Part shown: piece after piece, positions 34,105-44,989 of the stretch
Layout of the letters: each line of letters starts with the position of its first letter
Numbering within the stretch: position 1 is the first letter of the stretch
Assembly (NCBI GenBank): GCA_965237675.1
Contig: OZ250150.1
Coordinates: forward strand, 2,112,001-2,176,000
DNA from: Candidatus Latescibacterota bacterium
GTDB taxonomy: Bacteria > Latescibacterota > UBA2968 > GCA-2709665
Direction: 5' to 3'
DNA: 64,000 nt
Position numbers and translations under genes: made by a program
Notes under the pieces: generated by a model
Database searches by the model: none
Told to the model about the DNA's origin: nothing
What the model saw: only the letters and a program-made list of their open reading frames with translations

Positions 34105-36198
34105 TTATCTACCGAAAGCGTTGGCGAAGATTAGAAAATCGCCAAACCCGATCGTGCCGTCGCCGTCCAGATCATATCGTGCGTCGTAGTCTTCATCGGA
34201 TTGACCCAATCCGAATTGTCCCGCAAACTGTATAAAATCGGTAAAGCCGACGGTACCGTCGCCATCGAAATCGGGATTGGGGCTTCGAGGAGTGACGTAC
34301 GGCAACATGTCCCAAAGCAGAATTGTACCGTCTCCACTTCCACTGGCCAGGATCAGCCCATTGGGGGAAAAGGAGACGTTCGTGACAGCCTCGACATGTC
34401 CTTTCAGGACGTCTTTCTCCTTGCGGCTGATCACGTCCCACAATCGTACCGTTGCGTCCTCACTCGCACTTGCCAGAGTGGACCCGTCTGGCGAGAACGT
34501 CACCGAAAAGACACTGCTTTCATGTCCGGTCAGGGTTGCTTTCTCCCGTCTGCTTGCCATGTCCCACAGGCGAATCGTGCCATCTGAAATTCCACTGGCC
34601 AGGGTAGATCCATCAGACGAGAACGACACCGAGTAAAACAGATCCGTTTTGCCGCCCGAAAGATTGCCCCTTTGCTGGCGGCCAACCACATCCCACAATC
34701 GAATCTCCCTCCTACCCACACTGGCCAGGATGGACCCATCTTGCGAAAAGGTCAGTGAAAAGATCGACCCCGTATGACCAGTTAATGTGGCTTTCTCCTG
34801 CGTACTCGCCACGTCCCACAAACGGATCGTACCATCAGAACCTCCACTGGCGAGCGTAGATCCATCGGGTGAGAAGGACAGGGAAAAGACCTCCCCGATA
34901 TGCCCTTTCAATTTAGCCTCCTCTTGACGGCTAACCACATCCCACAACCGAATTGTACCGTCTCTGCGCACTGGATCTCCACTGCCAGTGGCCAGGGTGG
35001 CCCCATCCGGCGAGAACGCCACCGAAAAGACACTCCACCCTTCAAGCCCTGTTAATGAGGTCTCCTTCTGTCTGCTGGCCACGTCCCACAACTGTACCGT
35101 CTCGTCGCGACTTCCAGTGGCCAGGGTGGCCCCATCGGGCGAAAACGACATCGAAATGACCCAGGACGTATGCCCGTCTATTGTGGCCGTCTCCTGACGG
35201 CTGACCGTGTCCCATACCCGAATTGTACCGTCTCTGCTCCCGCTGGCCAGTGTGGCCCCGTCCGGCGAAAATGTTACAGAATAGACCCTGCTCGTATGCC
35301 CTTTCAAAATGGCACTTTCCACCCGGCCGACCATGTCCCACAACCGAATCGTACCGTCCCTGCTTCCACTGGCCAAGGTAGAGCCATCCGGGGAGAATGA
35401 AACGGAATAGATCCAATTGTCATGTCCTGTCAGGGTGGTTTTCTCCTGACGGCTGACCACGTCCCAAACCCGTATCGTACCATAAGCAATTGCACTGGCC
35501 AGGGTCTCGCCGTCTGGCGAGAATGATACGGAAGTAACAATGCCGCCGTGCCCTGCCAGCGTGGCCTTTTCTTTTCCGCTGGCTACATCCCACAACCGAA
35601 CCGATTTTTCTTCATCAAACAGATTCCCACTTCCGCTGGCCAAGGTCGCCCCGTCCGGCGAGAACGACACCGAATTGACCCATGACGCGTGTCCTGTAAG
35701 TGTGGATTTCGTCTGACCGCTGGCCAGGTCCCACAACCGAATCGTATTGTCCCAGCTCCCGCTGGCCAGGGCGGAGCCATCCGGGGAGAACGATACCGCA
35801 GTGACTCTTTCCGTATGCCCTGTCAGTGTGGCTTTCGTCTGACCACTGGCAACATCCCACAACCGAATCGTATTGTCCCAACTCCCGCTGGCCAGGGTGG
35901 CGCCATCCGGGGAGAACGATACCGCAAGGACATACCGCGTGTGCCCCGCGAACAAGGCCACTTCGGCGCCGGTGTGGGCATTGTACAGCCAGATACCGAT
36001 GCTGCTTGCCACCGCCAGGCGCGCGCCGTCCGGTGAATAGGCTACCGCTCTGTCATTAAAACTGATATCACCTTTGCCCAGGCGGGCGAGAGCGCCTTCC
36101 GGAAGGCTGAAGGGGTTTTCCTTCCCGGCGAGGCTGGCCCGCGCGAACAGGACGCCAACCAACAACAGGGCGATGCTGAATGAATGGCGCATTCTCAT
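34105..36198 (-). CDS. Secreted WD40-repeat protein (14 repeats) with C-terminal EF-hand/dockerin-like module
   Basis: Signal peptide; GH..V.SV.FSPDG.TLASGS.D.TIRLWD repeats; DFDGDGTVGFTDF...DLDGDGTIGFGDF tail. Confidence 0.92.
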   Translation of the reverse strand: MRMRHSFSIALLLVGVLFARASLAGKENPFSLPEGALARLGKGDISFNDRAVAYSPDGARLAVASSIGIWLYNAHTGAEVALFAGHTRYVLAVSFSPDGATLASGSWDNTIRLWDVASGQTKATLTGHTERVTAVSFSPDGSALASGSWDNTIRLWDLASGQTKSTLTGHASWVNSVSFSPDGATLASGSGNLFDEEKSVRLWDVASGKEKATLAGHGGIVTSVSFSPDGETLASAIAYGTIRVWDVVSRQEKTTLTGHDNWIYSVSFSPDGSTLASGSRDGTIRLWDMVGRVESAILKGHTSRVYSVTFSPDGATLASGSRDGTIRVWDTVSRQETATIDGHTSWVISMSFSPDGATLATGSRDETVQLWDVASRQKETSLTGLEGWSVFSVAFSPDGATLATGSGDPVRRDGTIRLWDVVSRQEEAKLKGHIGEVFSLSFSPDGSTLASGGSDGTIRLWDVASTQEKATLTGHTGSIFSLTFSQDGSILASVGRREIRLWDVVGRQQRGNLSGGKTDLFYSVSFSSDGSTLASGISDGTIRLWDMASRREKATLTGHESSVFSVTFSPDGSTLASASEDATVRLWDVISRKEKDVLKGHVEAVTNVSFSPNGLILASGSGDGTILLWDMLPYVTPRSPNPDFDGDGTVGFTDFIQFAGQFGLGQSDEDYDARYDLDGDGTIGFGDFLIFANAFGR

Positions 36199-37143: not shown

Positions 37144-38370
37144 CTATTGACTTAAAAAGCGTTTCCACCCTTCAGGCACGGCATTTGTCTCGAGCAGCAT
37201 CAGCACCGCCTGCCGCTGCGCGGTCTGCAGGCTGTCCTCCCGGGCTTTCCAATAGGCGGCGCCACGCCGGATAGCTTCCGGGTGCATTGAAAACGAGGCC
37301 CGGCTGAAAAGGGAGTCGTGAAGGGCGGGGTTAAGGGTATAGCCGTCGAGACGCGTGGTCTGTTCGGCCAAAGCGCCCGTCTCGGTGGTAATGCGCACGG
37401 TCTGCAGAACGGGCAGCCAGTAGCGGTCGTAGTAGAGCGCGTTTTCCTGGTAGGTGCGAAGTTCTTTGATGCCGAGTGATTTTCGGCCTTTCTTGTTCAA
37501 GCGCAGGTCGTAGCCCACCAGCGAGAAGTCGGTTGCGGAAATCCAGATGGCCCCTTCAAGTGCGGGGTTTCTTTTTTTTCCGGGTTCGACTTGAATTTTG
37601 TACACCGCCACGTCGCCCATCTGTACAGTACCTATCAGACGATAGCGGTAATCTCTCCGGGCGTCGGATTCCAACGGTAGAGGACCCACGTCAAAATCGC
37701 GGCCGTTGAGGCGGCCGCTGCGGATATTTACGATGACGCCGGGATGCATGCCGAATTGCTGGGCCGGCGCGCTGCGAGACCGGTACGCCGTGATGACCTG
37801 GGCGATCTCCCCAGGATTTCGATAATACCCCCGGCCGTCGTAATCGATTCGGGCAAGGACGGGCGAACCGGTATCGCTGCCGGCGTAGAGGGTCTGGACG
37901 CCGCGTAACTCAAAACGATGGGTCCGGAGGTCCGCGTAGCGGGTGTGAAAGACGTTTTCGCGGGGTTTTTGACCGATGGTTTTCAGGAGATCCTTGAGGG
38001 ATGGACGTGGGAGGTCAACGTGGGCCTTGAGCGTAATTGGAGAGGGGAAAAGCAAGATATCCAGTCGGCTTTCCGCACCGTCGGGTACGACAATCTCCCG
38101 CAGGGCCGTCCGATAGCCGACAAATGAAACCTGGACGCGAATGGGACCCCGTGGCAGGTCGGCAACCGTGAATCGGCCATAGAGGTCCGTATGGTCCCCG
38201 CGCTTGAGTTCCGGCAGGATGACCGTGGCGTACGGCAACGGCGTGCGCGTCGCGCTGTCTCTGACGGTGCCGTTCAGCGTGGCCGCTCGCACGGCCACGT
38301 GAGCAATGTGTACCGCAAGCGCACAGACGAGAAGCTCAAAAAAACGACGCGCGGACATCTGCCAGTGCAT
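37144..38370 (-). CDS. Secreted protein with carboxypeptidase regulatory-like domain (DUF5686-like C-terminus)
   Basis: Signal peptide; GTVRDS.T..PLPYATV...SFVGY; G.IWI...DF, YWLP. Confidence 0.7.
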   Translation of the reverse strand: MHWQMSARRFFELLVCALAVHIAHVAVRAATLNGTVRDSATRTPLPYATVILPELKRGDHTDLYGRFTVADLPRGPIRVQVSFVGYRTALREIVVPDGAESRLDILLFPSPITLKAHVDLPRPSLKDLLKTIGQKPRENVFHTRYADLRTHRFELRGVQTLYAGSDTGSPVLARIDYDGRGYYRNPGEIAQVITAYRSRSAPAQQFGMHPGVIVNIRSGRLNGRDFDVGPLPLESDARRDYRYRLIGTVQMGDVAVYKIQVEPGKKRNPALEGAIWISATDFSLVGYDLRLNKKGRKSLGIKELRTYQENALYYDRYWLPVLQTVRITTETGALAEQTTRLDGYTLNPALHDSLFSRASFSMHPEAIRRGAAYWKAREDSLQTAQRQAVLMLLETNAVPEGWKRFLSQ

Positions 38371-39499
38371 CGATAAGACGGGTGATATCCTCCTCGCTGT
38401 GGTCGGCCATCAGCGTAAGGCGCAAGCGGCTCTCGCCTTCGGGAACGGTTGGCGGCCGGATGCCGCTCAAGTAAATTCCCTCCCTGAAGAGATGGTCCGA
38501 AATCGCCATGGTGCGCTCCGTGTCGCCGATTAGGATGGGAACAATCTGGGATTGGGAGCCCATGAGATCGAAACCCAGGTCGCGCAGCGCACTTTGCACG
38601 GCGTGGACGTTTCGCCAGAGCCCGTTTCGCAAGTCCGAACGGGTTTCAATGAGTCCCAACGCGGCCGTAGCGGCCGCACAGGCGTCGGGTGGCAGGGCCG
38701 AGGTGTATATAAAGGCCGGGGCTCGATTGATCAGCAGGTCGACGAGTTCCGTGTCTCCGGCGACGAATCCGCCGTAGGCGCCCAGGGCTTTGCTGGCGGA
38801 GGTCGTTACAATGTCGATGCCTCGCGTGATGCCAAAGTGTTCGTGTATCCCTCGGCCGGAAGCGCCGAGGACCCCGGTCCCATGGGCATCGTCAACCATT
38901 AGAATGGCGTTGTGTCGGTTCGCGGCGTCCACGAGGTCTGGCAGGGGAGCGAGGTCGCCGTCCATGCTGAACAGGCCGTCGGTGACGATCAGGCGGCGCC
39001 GGAACTCGCATTCGGTATTGAGCAGGCTGTCGAGGTGGTCGACGTCCCGGTGGCGATAGACGAGGGTCTTTGCCCCGGAGAGCCGGCAGGCGTCGATGAT
39101 GCTGCGATGGTTGAGACGGTCGCTGAAAACCGCGTCTTCCGCGCCGACGAGGGCACTCACCGCGCCCAGGTTCGCCATGTAGCCGGTGGGAAAGCACAGG
39201 GCCGATTCGGTACCCAGGAAACGGGCCATCCGGTGTTCCAGCGTCCGATGCGGTTCCATGTTTCCTGAGATGAGCCGGGAGGCCGCCGCGCTGAGCCCGT
39301 AAGCCCGCAGCGCGGAAGCTGCTTCTTCTTTCAGAACGGGGTGGTTTGCAAGCCCGAGGTAATTGTTGGAACAGAAGAGGAGACGCTCTTTGCCGTCGAT
39401 GCGGACTCGGGGTCCCTGCGCACCTTCAAACAGGTGGAGGCTGCGGTACAGTCCGCGGGATTTCAGATTGTCCAGTTCCGTGGCGAGATGAGGAAGCAC
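38336..39499 (-). CDS. bioF: 8-amino-7-oxononanoate synthase
   Basis: CSNNYLGL, GYMAN, NHRSIID, FSMDGD, DDAHG, SKALG, IRPPTVP. Confidence 0.9.
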   Translation of the reverse strand: MLPHLATELDNLKSRGLYRSLHLFEGAQGPRVRIDGKERLLFCSNNYLGLANHPVLKEEAASALRAYGLSAAASRLISGNMEPHRTLEHRMARFLGTESALCFPTGYMANLGAVSALVGAEDAVFSDRLNHRSIIDACRLSGAKTLVYRHRDVDHLDSLLNTECEFRRRLIVTDGLFSMDGDLAPLPDLVDAANRHNAILMVDDAHGTGVLGASGRGIHEHFGITRGIDIVTTSASKALGAYGGFVAGDTELVDLLINRAPAFIYTSALPPDACAAATAALGLIETRSDLRNGLWRNVHAVQSALRDLGFDLMGSQSQIVPILIGDTERTMAISDHLFREGIYLSGIRPPTVPEGESRLRLTLMADHSEEDITRLIDALADVRASFF

Positions 39500-39604: not shown

Positions 39605-39632
39605 TTGACAAAAGGGTTCATTCGTTTATATT
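39605..39632 (+). promoter_or_regulatory. Sigma70-like promoter upstream of MITE-B and the lnt-tatC operon
   Basis: TTGACA-16 bp-TATATT. Confidence 0.55.
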
Positions 39633-39833: not shown

Positions 39834-39874
39834 ACCGGTTGGCGGGACTCACTGCTTGCGGCCAACCGGTTTTT
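39834..39874 (+). terminator. Terminator-like hairpin in the lnt-tatC leader
   Basis: ACCGGTTGGC/GCCAACCGGT stem followed by TTTT. Confidence 0.5.
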
Positions 39875-39946
39875 CTGTCCCGCAACCTGAACAGCGAAAA
39901 CGCGACGGGTGAAGATCCGGCAGAAGGGTTCGGAGGAACCGGAAAG

Positions 39947-42268
39947 ATGACGGAGGCACGGCAGGGCATAGACTGGAAATGGATGGTGGTGTTTCCGGCG
40001 GTTTCCGGCCTTGTCCTGGGTGCGGCATTTCCACCCATGCCCCTGGGTTTCCTGTCTTACGTGGCGCTAATCCCGCTGCTGATTTCGGCGGAACGGCTGC
40101 GCGGCCGTGCGGCGTTTGGCGCCGGGCTCGTTCAGGGGATATTTTTCTACGGAGCGACACTTTACTGGATTGGTTCGATCACGCCGCCGGGCATGGCCGG
40201 GGCGGTTTTTTACATGTCCCTGTTCCGTGGCCTGTTTTTGTGGACGTTCGCCCGCGTGGTGTGGCGGTACGGCGTCGTGGGTATGTGGGGCGCGCCCTTT
40301 CTCTGGGTTGGATTCGAGTATTTCAATTCTCTGGGAGACATGGGGTTTCCATGGGTGTTGCTTGGAAATTCACAGACGGCCTATCTGTGGTTGATCCAGT
40401 ATGCTGAAGTGACGGGGGTGTACGGGGTTTCGTTCTGGATTGTGGTGGTCAATCTGAGCGTGCTGATGCTGTGGAGGAACGGGGCTCGGCGCTGGGCATG
40501 GGCTGCCGGGCTTGCGGCCCTCTTTGCGGGACCCGCGGCGAACGGGTATCTGACGCTGAAGAATGATCCGGATGAGCAGTCCGTGCCGGTGGGCGTGGTC
40601 CAGCCGGATATGCCCCCGGTGGCCAAGGAATACAGGGGATTCGATTACAATTTCGGCAAGTTGAAGCCGATGACCGTGGAGGCCGCCGGTCAGGGTGCGA
40701 AGCTTGTGGTGTGGCCGGAGACGGCGGTCGGCTATCTGAAAGGGGAACTGTACCGACACCATCGCGAGCGGGTGCAGGCGATGGTGGATTCTCTCGGCAT
40801 CTACCTCTATACGGGCGCGTATCGACTGGTGGCTGGCGACCCGGTGAAGGTGTACAACTCCTCGTTTCTGTTCGCCCCCCGAAAAGGGATCACGGGATAC
40901 TACGACAAGACTCGCCTGGTGCCGTTCGGCGAACGGGCGCCGTTCCCGGACCTGTTACCTTTTTTGCGGAAGTTCCGGTTCACCGGCGGCGGATTCGTGG
41001 GCGGCAACTGGGATTCCGGAGAGACGCGGACGGTTTTCAATGGTCCGGACGCCACGTTCTCCGCGTTGATCTGTTACGATTCGGTCTTTCCCGGTTTTGT
41101 TCGTTCCTTTGTGGACATGGGCGCCGAGTATCTGGTGGTAATTACCAATGATGGATGGTTTGGTCGAACGTCCGGACCCTTTCAGCACGCCGAAGCGGCG
41201 GTGTTTCGCGCCATCGAGAACCGGCGGGCCGTGGTACGCTGCGCGAATACGGGCGTGTCCACGTTTATTGACGCCTACGGACGAAAGGCGGGGACGACCG
41301 GAATTTTCCACCCGGCCGTGTTGACACAGGGGGTGGTACCGAGAAGCGCAAAGACGTTTTATACCCGGTACGGAGATCTGTTTTCCCAGGTCTGCCTGGC
41401 CCTGAGCGCGATTCTGGTGGTGTTGGCCTTCCGCCGGCGCCCGATGGATGTGACGCCATCGATTCTGCCCCATGACTCCGAAATCCCCGCCGAACGCGCC
41501 AGTGAACCGTCCGCGGGCGTCGAAGACAGACCGATGCCGTTTCTGGATCATCTGGAGGAACTCCGGTGGCGCATATTGAAGGGGCTGGCGGCCCTCGTGG
41601 TCGGCGCCGTAATCTGCGGGATATTTTCGGACCGCATCCTGGGGTGGCTCGTGTTGCCGGTTCGGGACGTGACCGCCGTAATGGAGCTGTTGGGCGTGGC
41701 GCCGGTTGAGCCGCCGGTCAAGCTTATATATTTGAAGCCGACGGGCATGTTTCTCGTCAAACTTCAAATTGCCCTGGTGGGCGGCGCGATCCTGGCGTTG
41801 CCGGTTCTTCTGTACCAATTGTGGATCTTCGTTGCGCCGGGTTTGTTGACATCCGAGCGGCGGTACGTATCCTTTATTGTTTTTTCATCGTCGATCTGTT
41901 TTGTCCTCGGAGGCGCGATTGCTTACCTGAGTGTGGTGCCGCTGTCGTTTCGATTCCTTATTCTCATCAGCGAAGGGACCGGCGTCGACCCCCAGTTCGA
42001 TATCGGTTACTACATCGGCTTTGTGTTGAGACTGCTTGTTGCGTTCGGCGTCGTCTTCGAACTGCCGGTAGCGGCGTTTTTCCTGAGCCGCATTGGCCTG
42101 TTGACCGCAGATCGAATGCGGCGAGGCAGGCGGTATGCGGTGGTGATCGGTTTTATTCTGGCGGCCCTGCTCACACCACCGGATCCGATTTCCCAACTGA
42201 TGATGGCGCTGCCGCTCGTGCTGCTTTACGAGTTCAGCATCTGGGTAGCCCGCGTCGCCGGCAGATGA
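39947..42268 (+). CDS. lnt-tatC: Fused apolipoprotein N-acyltransferase (Lnt) - twin-arginine translocase subunit TatC
   Basis: Lnt motifs GFPW, VWPETA, YDK..LVPFGE, ICYD, ITNDGWFG, RAIENRR, ANTG, TFYTRYGD. After a ~30-aa linker, TatC motifs MPFLDHLEELRWR, APGL, FELP, LTPPDPISQ, LYE. No stop codon between them. Confidence 0.9.
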   Translation: MTEARQGIDWKWMVVFPAVSGLVLGAAFPPMPLGFLSYVALIPLLISAERLRGRAAFGAGLVQGIFFYGATLYWIGSITPPGMAGAVFYMSLFRGLFLWTFARVVWRYGVVGMWGAPFLWVGFEYFNSLGDMGFPWVLLGNSQTAYLWLIQYAEVTGVYGVSFWIVVVNLSVLMLWRNGARRWAWAAGLAALFAGPAANGYLTLKNDPDEQSVPVGVVQPDMPPVAKEYRGFDYNFGKLKPMTVEAAGQGAKLVVWPETAVGYLKGELYRHHRERVQAMVDSLGIYLYTGAYRLVAGDPVKVYNSSFLFAPRKGITGYYDKTRLVPFGERAPFPDLLPFLRKFRFTGGGFVGGNWDSGETRTVFNGPDATFSALICYDSVFPGFVRSFVDMGAEYLVVITNDGWFGRTSGPFQHAEAAVFRAIENRRAVVRCANTGVSTFIDAYGRKAGTTGIFHPAVLTQGVVPRSAKTFYTRYGDLFSQVCLALSAILVVLAFRRRPMDVTPSILPHDSEIPAERASEPSAGVEDRPMPFLDHLEELRWRILKGLAALVVGAVICGIFSDRILGWLVLPVRDVTAVMELLGVAPVEPPVKLIYLKPTGMFLVKLQIALVGGAILALPVLLYQLWIFVAPGLLTSERRYVSFIVFSSSICFVLGGAIAYLSVVPLSFRFLILISEGTGVDPQFDIGYYIGFVLRLLVAFGVVFELPVAAFFLSRIGLLTADRMRRGRRYAVVIGFILAALLTPPDPISQLMMALPLVLLYEFSIWVARVAGR

Positions 42269-42355
42269 GCCGGGCATTCGGCCGCGGACGTCCGATACGC
42301 GACCGCGCGGGAACACTTTGCAGCGGCTGTATAAATTGACAAGGGATTGTTTTTT

Positions 42356-43333
42356 ATGAGTATACCGGTTGCGGTCGGCATTCTGGCGGTGTGTTTCGTG
42401 GTGCTTGCCAAGTGCGCTTCGTGGTTTGTGGACGGAGCGGTGGGGATTGCCGAATATCTGAATGTTCCGAAGATGCTCATCGGCATCGTGCTGGTGAGCC
42501 TGGCGACGACCTCACCCGAACTGGCCGTGTCCGTTCTGTCCGCACTCGAGGGGCATCCGGAGATGGCGCTGGGCAATGCCGTCGGTTCCGTGATTGTGGA
42601 CGACGGCGTTGCGCTGCCGCTGGGCGTCCTCGTGGCAGGGACGCCGATTCTCATCAATCCATATTTGTTACGGACGACCGGGATATTTCTGATCGTCGTG
42701 GATTTGGCCGCGTACGCGATGGCGTTTGACGGGCGCCTGGGGCGCGCCGAGGGAGGGGTACTGCTACTGCTGTTCGTGGCGTACACGGTTTTTGCATATG
42801 TGACGCGTCGTCGATCTTCCGAGGCAGAAGGGAACCGGCTGGAGGAACTGCAGGAGATCGAGGCGTCAATTGAGGGACGCGGTCTGGGGATGCTGCTGCT
42901 CTGGTTTTGCGTGGGGCTGGTCGGCGTGATGATATCCAGTCATTTTATCGTGGGGTCCGCGGTGGCCATCGCCTCGGAGCTGGGCGTCAGCGAAGCGGTA
43001 GTTGCGCTTACGGTTATTGCTATTGGCACGTCGTTGCCGGAGATCGCCACCGGCGTGACGGCAGCGCGGGGGGGACATGGGGAGATCGTGGTAGGCAATA
43101 TTCTGGGCGCGGATATCCTGAATATCTGCTGGATCGCAGGGGCATCCGCAGTGGTGAATCCGCTCGTGGTGGCGCCCAAAGTGATCCATTTTTCGTTTCC
43201 CGCCATGCTGGCGATTGTATTGGCGATGCTCGTCATGATGCGCACAGGCCACCGCCTGACCCGAATCGAAGGTTTCGTGCTGCTGGCGGTATACGGGGTG
43301 TATTTGACTTTTACGGGTATATTGTTCTTTTAG
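42356..43333 (+). CDS. Calcium/sodium antiporter (CaCA, YrbG-like)
   Basis: TTSPEL...GNAVGS and GTSLPE...GNILGA alpha repeats. Confidence 0.9.
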   Translation: MSIPVAVGILAVCFVVLAKCASWFVDGAVGIAEYLNVPKMLIGIVLVSLATTSPELAVSVLSALEGHPEMALGNAVGSVIVDDGVALPLGVLVAGTPILINPYLLRTTGIFLIVVDLAAYAMAFDGRLGRAEGGVLLLLFVAYTVFAYVTRRRSSEAEGNRLEELQEIEASIEGRGLGMLLLWFCVGLVGVMISSHFIVGSAVAIASELGVSEAVVALTVIAIGTSLPEIATGVTAARGGHGEIVVGNILGADILNICWIAGASAVVNPLVVAPKVIHFSFPAMLAIVLAMLVMMRTGHRLTRIEGFVLLAVYGVYLTFTGILFF

Positions 43334-43342
43334 GGGATCATT

Positions 43343-44377
43343 ATGGCCGGGATTTTTGTGACCGGTGGCGCGGGGTTTATCGGTTCGAACTTTGTTCGGT
43401 ACTGGTTGTCCAAATATCCGGATGACAGAGTTGTAAACTACGATTTGCTCACGTACGCCGGAAATCTCGATAACCTTTCCGATGTGGCGGAAACATATCC
43501 CGGCAGGTACGAGTTCGTCCACGGCGATATCGGCAACTATGAGTTGACTCGAGATCTTTTCGAGCGGCACCGGCCGGATTATATCGTGAATTTCGCCGCC
43601 GAGTCCCACAACAGCCGTGCGGTCATGAATCCGGACGTTTTCTACGAGACGAACGTGCTGGGGACACAGCGCTTGCTCCGGGCGGCTTACGACGCAAGAG
43701 TGTCCCGGGTTCACCATATTTCAACGTGTGAGGTCTACGGGGACCTGCCCCTCGATTCGGAGGCAAGCTTTTCGGAGACCGACCCTTATCTGCCGCGTAC
43801 GCCTTACAACGCATCCAAAGCGGCGGCGGATCTGGCGGTCCGGGCGTACCATCATACCTTCGGGCTGCCGGTCACGATTTCCAATTGTGCGAACAACTAC
43901 GGGCCCTACCAGTTCCCCGAAAAGGTGGTTCCTCTCTTTGTCACTCAGGTTCTGAACGGGAAGAAGATGACGCTCTACAGGAGCAGCCGGAACAAACGGG
44001 AGTGGCTCCATGTGGTGGACCATTGCAGGGCTATCGACCTGATCCTGAAACGAGGCAGGGTCGGAGAGACGTACAATATCGGCAGCGGCGTTGAGGTGGA
44101 CGTCGAGACGATTGCAGACACGATTCTGGATGTACTCGGGCAGGACGCGTCATCCAAGGTATACGTTCCGGACCGACCCGGACACGATCGCAGGTACCTT
44201 CTGGATTCGAGCAAGTTACGCACCCAACTCGGATGGCGCCCCGAAGTTTCTTTTGAAGATGGGTTCAAAGAAACAATACTCTGGTACACTGACAATCGTG
44301 CCTGGTGGGAACCCCTGCTGAAGCGCCTCGACGTGGACGAAGAAGGCTGGACGCAGGTGTCGTCCCGGAACTCCTGA
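43343..44377 (+). CDS. rfbB: dTDP-glucose 4,6-dehydratase
   Basis: VTGGAGFIGSNF, LTYAGN, AAESH, YNASK, NNYGPYQFPEK, DRPGHDRRY. Confidence 0.95.
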   Translation: MAGIFVTGGAGFIGSNFVRYWLSKYPDDRVVNYDLLTYAGNLDNLSDVAETYPGRYEFVHGDIGNYELTRDLFERHRPDYIVNFAAESHNSRAVMNPDVFYETNVLGTQRLLRAAYDARVSRVHHISTCEVYGDLPLDSEASFSETDPYLPRTPYNASKAAADLAVRAYHHTFGLPVTISNCANNYGPYQFPEKVVPLFVTQVLNGKKMTLYRSSRNKREWLHVVDHCRAIDLILKRGRVGETYNIGSGVEVDVETIADTILDVLGQDASSKVYVPDRPGHDRRYLLDSSKLRTQLGWRPEVSFEDGFKETILWYTDNRAWWEPLLKRLDVDEEGWTQVSSRNS

Positions 44378-44416
44378 TCTGAAATACGCGTCGATTTCTC
44401 CGGGAAAGGAAGTTGG

Positions 44417-44989
44417 ATGCCATTCCGGTTTCAAAGGATGGGAATTCCCGAACTCATTCTGGTCGAACCCCGGGTTTTCGAAGACAACCGCGGCTTTCTG
44501 ATGGAATCCTATAAGAGGTCTGATTTTGAGGCGAACGGGATTTCCGCCGAGTTCGTGCAGGATATCCACTCCCATTCGGTCCGGCGCGTTCTGCGGGGGT
44601 TGCACTACCAGCTGAACCCCGGGGCACAGGGCAAGCTGGTCCGTGTCGTGAAGGGCGAGGTGTTTGACGTGGCCGTGGATATCCGCAGGAACGCACCCAC
44701 CTTCGGACGGTGGGAAGCGGTTGTGTTGTCGGGCGCCAACTTCAGGATGTTCTACGTCCCCGAGGGTTTTGCGCACGGGTTCTGTGTGTTGAGCGACGAG
44801 GCCGAGTTCGTGTACAAGGTGACTGCGGAGTTCGCACCGGATCTCGACCGGGGCATTGTTTGGGACGATCCGGCCATCGCCATCGATTGGCCGGTTTCCA
44901 ATCCAATACTCTCAAGGAAGGACCTGGAACTCCCCCCGCTGGCCGACGCCGAGAGGAATTTCATCTACGACCCTGGAGCGGGTGTCTGA
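44417..44989 (+). CDS. rfbC: dTDP-4-dehydrorhamnose 3,5-epimerase
   Basis: DNRGF, LRGLHYQ, QGKLV, DVAVDIR, PEGFAHGF. Confidence 0.95.
   Translation: MPFRFQRMGIPELILVEPRVFEDNRGFLMESYKRSDFEANGISAEFVQDIHSHSVRRVLRGLHYQLNPGAQGKLVRVVKGEVFDVAVDIRRNAPTFGRWEAVVLSGANFRMFYVPEGFAHGFCVLSDEAEFVYKVTAEFAPDLDRGIVWDDPAIAIDWPVSNPILSRKDLELPPLADAERNFIYDPGAGV

Follow-up and report, generated by a model that had tools for sequence, protein, structure and literature searches.

The 64,000-nucleotide stretch of DNA considered here (positions 2,112,001 to 2,176,000 of contig OZ250150.1, assembly GCA_965237675.1, from a Candidatus Latescibacterota bacterium; hereafter the window) contains a gene in which the coding sequence of apolipoprotein N-acyltransferase, Lnt, runs on in the same frame into that of TatC, the core component of the twin-arginine translocation (Tat) system. 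The locus raises the questions whether this fusion is real, how it arose, and whether joining the two proteins ties Tat export to lipoprotein N-acylation. The first has a plain answer, i.e., the fusion is real and the initial observation is confirmed. As for the other two, lnt-tatC is probably a genuine bifunctional membrane-protein gene of operon-to-fusion origin, with a tether that is tolerated or mildly useful but not mechanistically required.

Two complete membrane proteins in one frame

Read from the ATG at position 39947 the frame runs for 773 codons without a stop, in agreement with the uninterrupted 773-residue frame described in the first-pass annotation, which was made from the DNA sequence before any database was searched. 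The enclosing open frame (39839 to 42268, plus strand) amounts to 809 amino acids if counted from a TTG. The ATG at 39947 is the likely start because a GGAGG lies 10 nt 5' of it and because the same methionine opens most homologues; for comparison, Shine-Dalgarno-like tetramers precede 29% of 2967 crudely called gene starts in the genome of the window, as against a background of 14% inside genes. Conservation was assessed over 114 fused homologues with 41–92% identity to the protein of the window (coordinates of all features are given in Table 1).

The Lnt part is complete and spans residues 20–497. It scores 320.2 bits against the NCBIfam equivalog for lnt, TIGR00546 (cut-off 132.9), and in a comparison with solved structures residues 22–497 align to residues 27–511 of Escherichia coli Lnt. 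The motifs WPE (E258), YDK (K321), and ICYD (C376) fall opposite WPE, NK, and ICYE of the E. coli enzyme, whose catalytic triad is Glu267, Lys335, and Cys387 (PMC5500888, in excerpt), and all three residues are invariant across the 114 homologues. The AlphaFold2 model has helices up to residue 204, a beta-rich domain from 213 to 463 and a helix from 478 to 495, i.e., the eight-helix membrane domain of Lnt, in which the nitrilase domain is inserted between helices 7 and 8. The last helix matches the C-terminal one of E. coli Lnt in the alignment and is followed, on the cytoplasmic side, by FRRRP. A full Lnt with a Glu-Lys-Cys triad, as first proposed, is therefore borne out by the Pfam and TIGR00546 matches and by the alignment of the triad. 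The protein of the window shares with E. coli Lnt (PDB 5N6H, 5VRG, 5XHQ) the triad, the membrane domain and the periplasmic nitrilase domain; identity is low despite the full-length alignment, and whereas E. coli Lnt stops a few residues past helix 8, the protein of the window continues for another 278 residues into TatC.

The TatC part is equally complete, as the first-pass annotation had stated. The Pfam model PF00902 is matched over its entire length (residues 534–756, profile positions 1–208 of 208, 229.5 bits), the NCBIfam equivalog for tatC, TIGR00945, is matched with 201.4 bits (cut-off 132.7), and residues 530–772 align to residues 1–231 of Aquifex aeolicus TatC in the comparison with solved structures. 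The TatC part opens with MPFLDHLEELRW, in which M530, F532, L533, H535, and L536 are invariant among the 114 fused proteins and the other residues at least 90% conserved; the same holds for HLEELR (residues 535–540, at least 90% conserved), and much of the TatC core is invariant. In E. coli, H12, E15, L16, and R17 are tabulated as the counterparts of the N-terminal motif residues, and the table marks E15, to which E538 corresponds, as important for function and as a site of crosslinks to the signal peptide (PMC3827258). The six-helix core and the N-terminal HLxELR motif are shared with A. aeolicus TatC (4B4A/4HTS; TatC chains also in 9DZZ and 9R91). Known TatC proteins are free-standing, about 230–260 amino acids long, with a short free N-terminal tail. 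Here TatC forms the C-terminal third of a longer frame and its tail is the tether to a 500-residue enzyme, a departure in architecture and not in fold or family.

Between the two parts lies an acidic, Pro/Ser-rich stretch, which corresponds to the Pro/Glu/Ser-rich linker initially noted. The AlphaFold2 model, built with the 114 homologues, has a mean predicted local distance difference test score (pLDDT) of 83.6 and falls below 50 only at residues 1–5 and in this linker, which is therefore modeled as disordered. With a predicted template modeling score (pTM) of 0.67 each half is confident, while their mutual arrangement is not confidently fixed. A complex prediction of Lnt (residues 1–508) against TatC (528–773) returned a score of 0.00; having been run without controls, it counts neither way on binding. 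E. coli Lnt has eight transmembrane helices with both termini in the cytoplasm (PMC5500888, in excerpt), and this together with the alignments to E. coli Lnt and A. aeolicus TatC upholds the earlier remark that the topologies of the two proteins are compatible. The predicted topology rests on homology to solved structures because Kyte-Doolittle hydropathy, which resolved the TatC helices and Lnt helix 8, missed the weakly hydrophobic membrane domain of Lnt.

Natural fusions of Lnt with other partners exist. In mycobacterial Ppm1 an Lnt-like domain is joined to polyprenol-phosphate mannose synthase. Ppm1 and the protein of the window are both natural fusions of an Lnt-type membrane domain with a second membrane-associated activity, but the partner is a glycosyltransferase in the former and a translocase in the latter, and the Pfam search of the protein of the window found no glycosyltransferase domain; at E ≤ 0.01 it matched LNT_N, CN_hydrolase, TatC, and a sub-threshold DUF7534 only. 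PAP2-Lnt, Lnt-SNase, and Lnt-LEA_2 (P0165, P0182, P0209) were each seen once among the 150 best HMMER matches; they demonstrate that extra domains are tolerated at either end of Lnt, and none of them carries TatC. Two more long Lnt proteins (826 and 842 amino acids) have C-terminal parts without a Pfam match. On the TatC side, engineered TatB-TatC translational fusions are reportedly functional in E. coli, although a literature search did not retrieve the account. They would likewise place a membrane-anchored partner at the N-terminus of TatC, but they are artificial and the partner is itself a Tat component.

Table 1. Features of the lnt-tatC gene, its 5' region and candidate Tat-exported lipoproteins (window positions, or contig C1 of the window's genome, G000, where so indicated)
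Feature	Position	Strand	Remarks
lnt-tatC fusion gene	39947..42268	+	773 codons and TGA, single unbroken frame, likely start
Sigma-70-like promoter match	39605..39632	+	TTGACA-16 nt-TATATT, 11/12 matches, consensus only
Shine-Dalgarno-like GGAGG	39932..39936	+	10 nt 5' of ATG 39947
LNT_N membrane domain, helices 1–6	40004..40456	+	aa 20–170, PF20154, 107.5 bits; helices in model
CN_hydrolase, periplasmic nitrilase-type domain	40592..41296	+	aa 216–450, 102.9 bits (Pfam)
Triad codons	E258 40718-40720, K321 40907-40909, C376 41072-41074	+	HMMER alignment to E. coli Lnt
Last Lnt transmembrane helix	41378..41431	+	aa 478–495 in model; hydropathy peak 477–495
Disordered acidic/Pro/Ser-rich cytoplasmic linker	41444..41533	+	aa 500–529, about 30 aa; pLDDT < 50
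Complete TatC	41534..42265	+	aa 530–773; opens with conserved MPFLDHLEELRW
ATG of M530, former tatC start codon, possible internal start	41534..41536	+	ATG in 47/48 fused loci
Heparinase II/III-like protein, 1031 aa	G000:C1:5163298-5166396	-	Twin-arginine motif and lipobox; candidate Tat-exported lipoprotein
MsrP-like molybdoenzyme	G000:C1:1583092-1584117	+	Twin-arginine motif and lipobox; candidate Tat-exported lipoprotein
DctP-type TRAP binding protein	G000:C1:1174692-1175813	+	Twin-arginine motif and lipobox; candidate Tat-exported lipoprotein

Distribution and origin of the fusion

A sequencing or assembly error that removed a stop or shifted the frame between two genes could leave the same trace, and as some relatives carry the two genes separated by as little as 40 nt, one such error could mimic a fusion. 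Three observations speak against it. First, in the order to which the window belongs (two families, its own genome included) the junction lies in one frame in 53 of 53 genomes at identities of 56–92%; many of these are single-contig, and the two that are cut by contig ends are nevertheless open across the junction. Second, in a protein collection clustered at 90%, 117 of the 120 best clusters hold both the Lnt part and TatC. Third, contigs from three runs of three studies span the junction without indels (40910-42300, 40889-41970, and 41221-41569), of which the first may be the source of the window itself. An artefact can thus be regarded as practically excluded. RNA run X20 contained only two short contigs of a relative, with 13 and 10 differing letters. 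Among the checks that the first-pass annotation had proposed, those for read support across the junction and for the CN_hydrolase plus TatC architecture in relatives both turned out in favor of the fusion, with contigs of three studies bridging the junction with no inserted or missing letter and a fused frame throughout the order. A stop codon ahead of the ATG at 41534 in relatives, which it had listed as a refutation, is absent from the 53 genomes of the order and present in lineages of the same class where the genes are split.

The distribution was surveyed in 168 genomes of the phylum, 166 of which were matched by the whole protein and 162 by the TatC part alone. In a sister family of the same class, TatC lies in a stop-to-stop frame of 801–983 amino acids in 31 genomes, 11 of them scored by the length of this frame alone, and in a frame of 185–492 amino acids in 38 genomes; one genome is ambiguous, and the remainder were unmatched or not among the matches listed. 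TatC frames in the other classes of the phylum are mostly 250–430 amino acids long (two are longer) and lnt lies elsewhere, far from tatC (e.g., 2.4 Mb off in G050) or on a separate contig. Among 1.84 billion representatives at 50% identity, the 150 best HMMER matches include two full-length fused proteins (978 and 520 bits), below which follow Lnt alone, TatC alone or fragments (388 bits at most). Judged from the representative proteins searched, the fusion appears to be confined to this lineage. Seventeen public loci match the Lnt part, 12 of them titled Latescibacterota or Latescibacteria, four with Gemmatimonad names and one "uncultured bacterium"; a further 63 from other phyla, two of which are titled Latescibacterota, match the TatC part only. 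Those clusters of the 90% collection that bear a name are called "apolipoprotein N-acyltransferase" or "hypothetical protein", the one exception being a fragment labeled TatC. Full-text literature searches, which did not extend to supplementary files, returned no published account of an Lnt-TatC fusion, in keeping with the first-pass annotation, to which none was known, and a term search for "fused" and "fusion" found neither word in a 2013 survey of TatC diversity (PMC3827258). The architecture therefore appears to be undescribed so far, while neither half departs from what is usual in its family.

Three loci of the survey stood apart. In G029 (C1:5245443-5247709) the first approximately 120 Lnt residues are matched separately, by a stretch with a TAA in it, and residues 59–771 are in one frame; the N-terminus of Lnt may be disrupted in this genome. 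In a small-genome family of another class (L192:96-1754, minus strand; G065:C7) a 553-residue stop-to-stop frame joins an RnfB-like Fe-S cluster motif and 4Fe-4S dicluster domains (residues 47–316) to a full TatC (322–531), and as four relatives of the same genus have TatC frames of merely 282–291 amino acids, the frame may represent another type of natural TatC fusion or else result from a stop lost in one assembly. A 653-residue TatC frame in G042 was rejected as a fusion, since the sequence ahead of TatC overlaps a gene for EPSP synthase that is read in a different frame.

How the fusion arose was addressed at 80 loci at which the junction was scored by script: 48 are fused, 31 are split, and one (L054) was dropped as its TatC motif was not found. 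All 48 fused loci are stop-free from the C-terminal region of Lnt into TatC. All 31 split loci, which are from the same class, have lnt followed by tatC on one strand, the distance from the lnt stop to the tatC ATG being 40–220 nt at 30 loci and 1438 nt at the remaining one. The two genes share a frame in seven of the 31, about the one-third expected by chance, and there is consequently no hint of programmed readthrough in the split relatives. In a FastTree phylogeny of concatenated Lnt and TatC with 83 rows (the 48 fused and 31 split loci, with four genomes of other classes as outgroup; two further pairs meant for the outgroup were missed by the Lnt motif and left out) the fused loci group in four distinct clades, every one of which has 100% local support and is nested among split relatives, and this requires at least four changes. 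IQ-TREE likewise required at least four on 38 chosen rows (14 fused, 20 split, and four outgroup), and the approximately unbiased (AU) test rejected the grouping of all fused rows in a single clade (delta lnL 618, p-AU 0.0016), albeit for a group defined by the trait itself and tested after the first tree had been seen. Split and fused forms even occur as sister groups inside single genera. The four changes may mix gains and losses, and four gains are the simplest reading because the outgroups are split and unlinked.

These data are consistent with a simple route, in which adjacent lnt and tatC genes on one strand would have become one when the lnt stop was lost and the short spacer was read through in frame. 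The switch between split and fused took place at least four times, one event being at the base of the order of the window, where the fused form is fixed. The linkers fit this route. Their length and sequence differ from lineage to lineage: an (S/T)ILP motif is present at 20 of 20 loci of the window's family (L010-L029) but missing from all 28 fused loci outside it, and within the sister family one genus carries acidic, His-rich tandem repeats that vary in number and another has Gly/Ala/Pro-rich stretches. Read-through of a former intergenic spacer would give such lineage-specific variety.

Products of the fused gene and the question of coupling

It is conceivable that the fused frame yields two products, with the ATG at 41534 still starting a free TatC beside the fusion protein or largely in its place. 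Across the four clades of independent fusion this codon has stayed ATG in 47 of the 48 loci, in contrast to the residues immediately ahead of it, which vary freely. M530 is invariant in the 114 fused proteins, TatC of the split relatives begins with the same methionine, and MPFLDHLE opens the TatC match in many other phyla. Neither a Shine-Dalgarno-like nor, according to the promoter scan, a promoter-like motif precedes 41534. The former absence is uninformative, or at best weak evidence against an internal start, because about 70% of the crude gene starts in this genome have no such motif. The same promoter and terminator scan found a sigma-70-like match in the 447-nt gap 5' of the fusion gene and no more terminator-like matches inside the gene than in shuffled sequence. 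Against a second product, the methionine sits in a twelve-residue segment that is at least 90% conserved among the 114 proteins and is perhaps kept for the function of TatC; one fused genome has ATA (Ile) in its place; and internal initiation in a frame that is being translated tends to be inefficient. That the frame gives two products is rather unlikely, although of the alternatives to a single fusion protein with a non-obligatory tether this is the strongest.

If the frame is translated as one, the product would consist of Lnt, with eight transmembrane helices and a periplasmic nitrilase-type domain, a disordered cytoplasmic tether of about 30 residues, and TatC with six transmembrane helices. 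The Lnt half would N-acylate all apolipoproteins, most of them exported by Sec, the TatC half would be the signal-peptide receptor of a minimal TatA/TatC translocase, and the tether would enforce 1:1 co-synthesis, co-insertion and proximity.

The content of the genome (5.6 Mb in three contigs) bears on these roles. The TatC family has one match and lnt one match above the cut-off, and both are the fusion frame. The only TatA-family (TatA_B_E) gene lies at G000:C1:4290845, about 2.1 Mb from the fusion gene, in line with the earlier remark that the window has no tatA or tatB. Nearly every genome of the phylum has a single tatA, fused or split alike, and across these genomes no correlation was found between the copy number of tatA and the state of the fusion. 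In many genomes of the sister family the lone tatA is about 5–14 kb from lnt-tatC (e.g., G167:C1:2063588 for tatA and 2070297 for lnt). The genes for the other two enzymes of the lipoprotein pathway, lgt and lspA, are present in the window's genome as unlinked, free-standing genes. A crude scan for signal peptides (a regular expression applied to crudely called open reading frames and triaged by eye) gave 49 "strict" twin-arginine matches, about eight of which were judged convincing Tat candidates, among them PhoX, a sulfite-oxidase-like and an MsrP-like molybdoenzyme, DctP-type and NMT1-type binding proteins, a dioxygenase and a heparinase II/III-like protein. A TatA-family partner and candidate twin-arginine substrates for TatC thus coexist in this genome. 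The same scan gave about 91 lipobox candidates, only three of which also have a good twin-arginine consensus, and therefore the sole Lnt must serve mainly lipoproteins exported by Sec.

The first-pass annotation had inferred that Tat export of folded lipoproteins is physically coupled to their final acylation, or that Lnt is recruited into TatBC complexes. Lnt would then be held at the Tat receptor to N-acylate Tat-exported folded lipoproteins, or be a structural member of TatC complexes that lack TatB. Much is compatible with this: the order lnt-tatC is kept throughout a class, the pair has gone between fused and split at least four times, a whole order has become fixed for the fused form, the topologies are compatible, and there is a single TatA-family gene with no second paralogue. 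Furthermore, the tether joins TatC right at the N-terminal segment, for which crosslinks to the signal peptide and to TatB are tabulated in E. coli (PMC3827258), and three of the Tat candidates carry lipoboxes, i.e., the heparinase II/III-like protein, the MsrP-like molybdoenzyme and the DctP-type binding protein. On the other hand, Lnt is the third enzyme of its pathway, and Lgt and LspA, which act before it, are neither linked nor fused. The sole Lnt of the genome must also serve about 90 lipobox proteins without a twin-arginine motif. Sister lineages, some within the same genus, retain separate lnt and tatC genes, tatA copy number is the same in fused and split genomes, the linker is disordered and constant neither in length nor in sequence, and the pTM gives no confident packing between the two domains. 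Coupling as stated in the first-pass annotation is therefore not supported, and several results lean against an obligatory form of it. Its proposed count of proteins with both a twin-arginine motif and a lipobox did yield candidates, but the three are few compared with the approximately 91 lipobox proteins. Taken as a whole, functional coupling is unlikely. Because of the split sisters, the unlinked lgt and lspA and the few proteins with both signals, any coupling would seem not to be obligatory, and a tether that is tolerated or mildly useful is favored over a dedicated machine for export and acylation. That the tether is not required is suggested by the sister lineages, which live with separate genes.

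A bolder version is that Lnt and TatC form a membrane supercomplex throughout this class, whether fused or split, and that the repeated fusions reflect selection making the contact permanent. In such a system, which lacks TatB, Lnt would then sit at the signal-peptide-binding N-terminus of TatC as a TatB-like scaffold or as the direct receiver of Tat-exported lipoproteins. This is more doubtful still than functional coupling.

Several points nevertheless weigh against a fusion protein whose tether is merely tolerated or mildly useful. The 85-kDa polypeptide and its activity are predicted from the sequence. Four independent fusions of one pair could reflect selection for proximity and hence a real functional link, and fixation across an order, at identities down to 56%, means that the fusion at least does no harm and perhaps brings an advantage. 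A lipobox on three of about eight convincing Tat candidates, crude as the scan was, is not a small share. The count of fused genomes in the sister family includes the 11 of 31 scored by frame length, and the case for recurrence leans in part on an AU test of a group chosen by its trait in hindsight. Even so, a bifunctional gene of operon-to-fusion origin with a non-obligatory tether is considered the probable explanation.

The neighbors of the gene show no obvious connection with Tat or lipoproteins. Upstream lies a divergent class I/II aminotransferase gene (BioF/Kbl-like; 38336-39499, minus strand), and downstream (42347-44989, plus strand) are genes for a Na+/Ca2+ exchanger family protein, a dTDP-glucose-4,6-dehydratase-like protein and a dTDP-4-dehydrorhamnose 3,5-epimerase. 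Elsewhere in the window (34105-36198, minus strand) lies a 697-residue protein that, judged from its translation only, is built almost entirely from WD40-like repeats ("SFSPDG..LASGS..IRLWD"). Its N-terminus resembles a signal peptide, and its C-terminus has two DxDGDG motifs of the calcium-binding or dockerin-like type.

Implications

The carriers of the fusion belong to a mostly uncultured phylum. Annotation pipelines that call the protein "Lnt" only would score their genomes as being without TatC, a practical error for metabolic reconstructions. For the Tat system itself, TatC presumably works in these bacteria with a 500-residue polytopic enzyme tethered to the segment that binds the signal peptide, and this constrains models for the assembly of the receptor complex. 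The four independent contrasts between fused and split forms constitute a natural experiment on the link between Tat export and lipoprotein N-acylation. A supercomplex, if real, would be without precedent as a natural connection between a protein translocase and an enzyme of lipoprotein maturation, and coupling, if true, would add a new principle to envelope biogenesis. Without real coupling, lnt-tatC is a clean example of the passage from operon to fusion for two membrane proteins of compatible topology.

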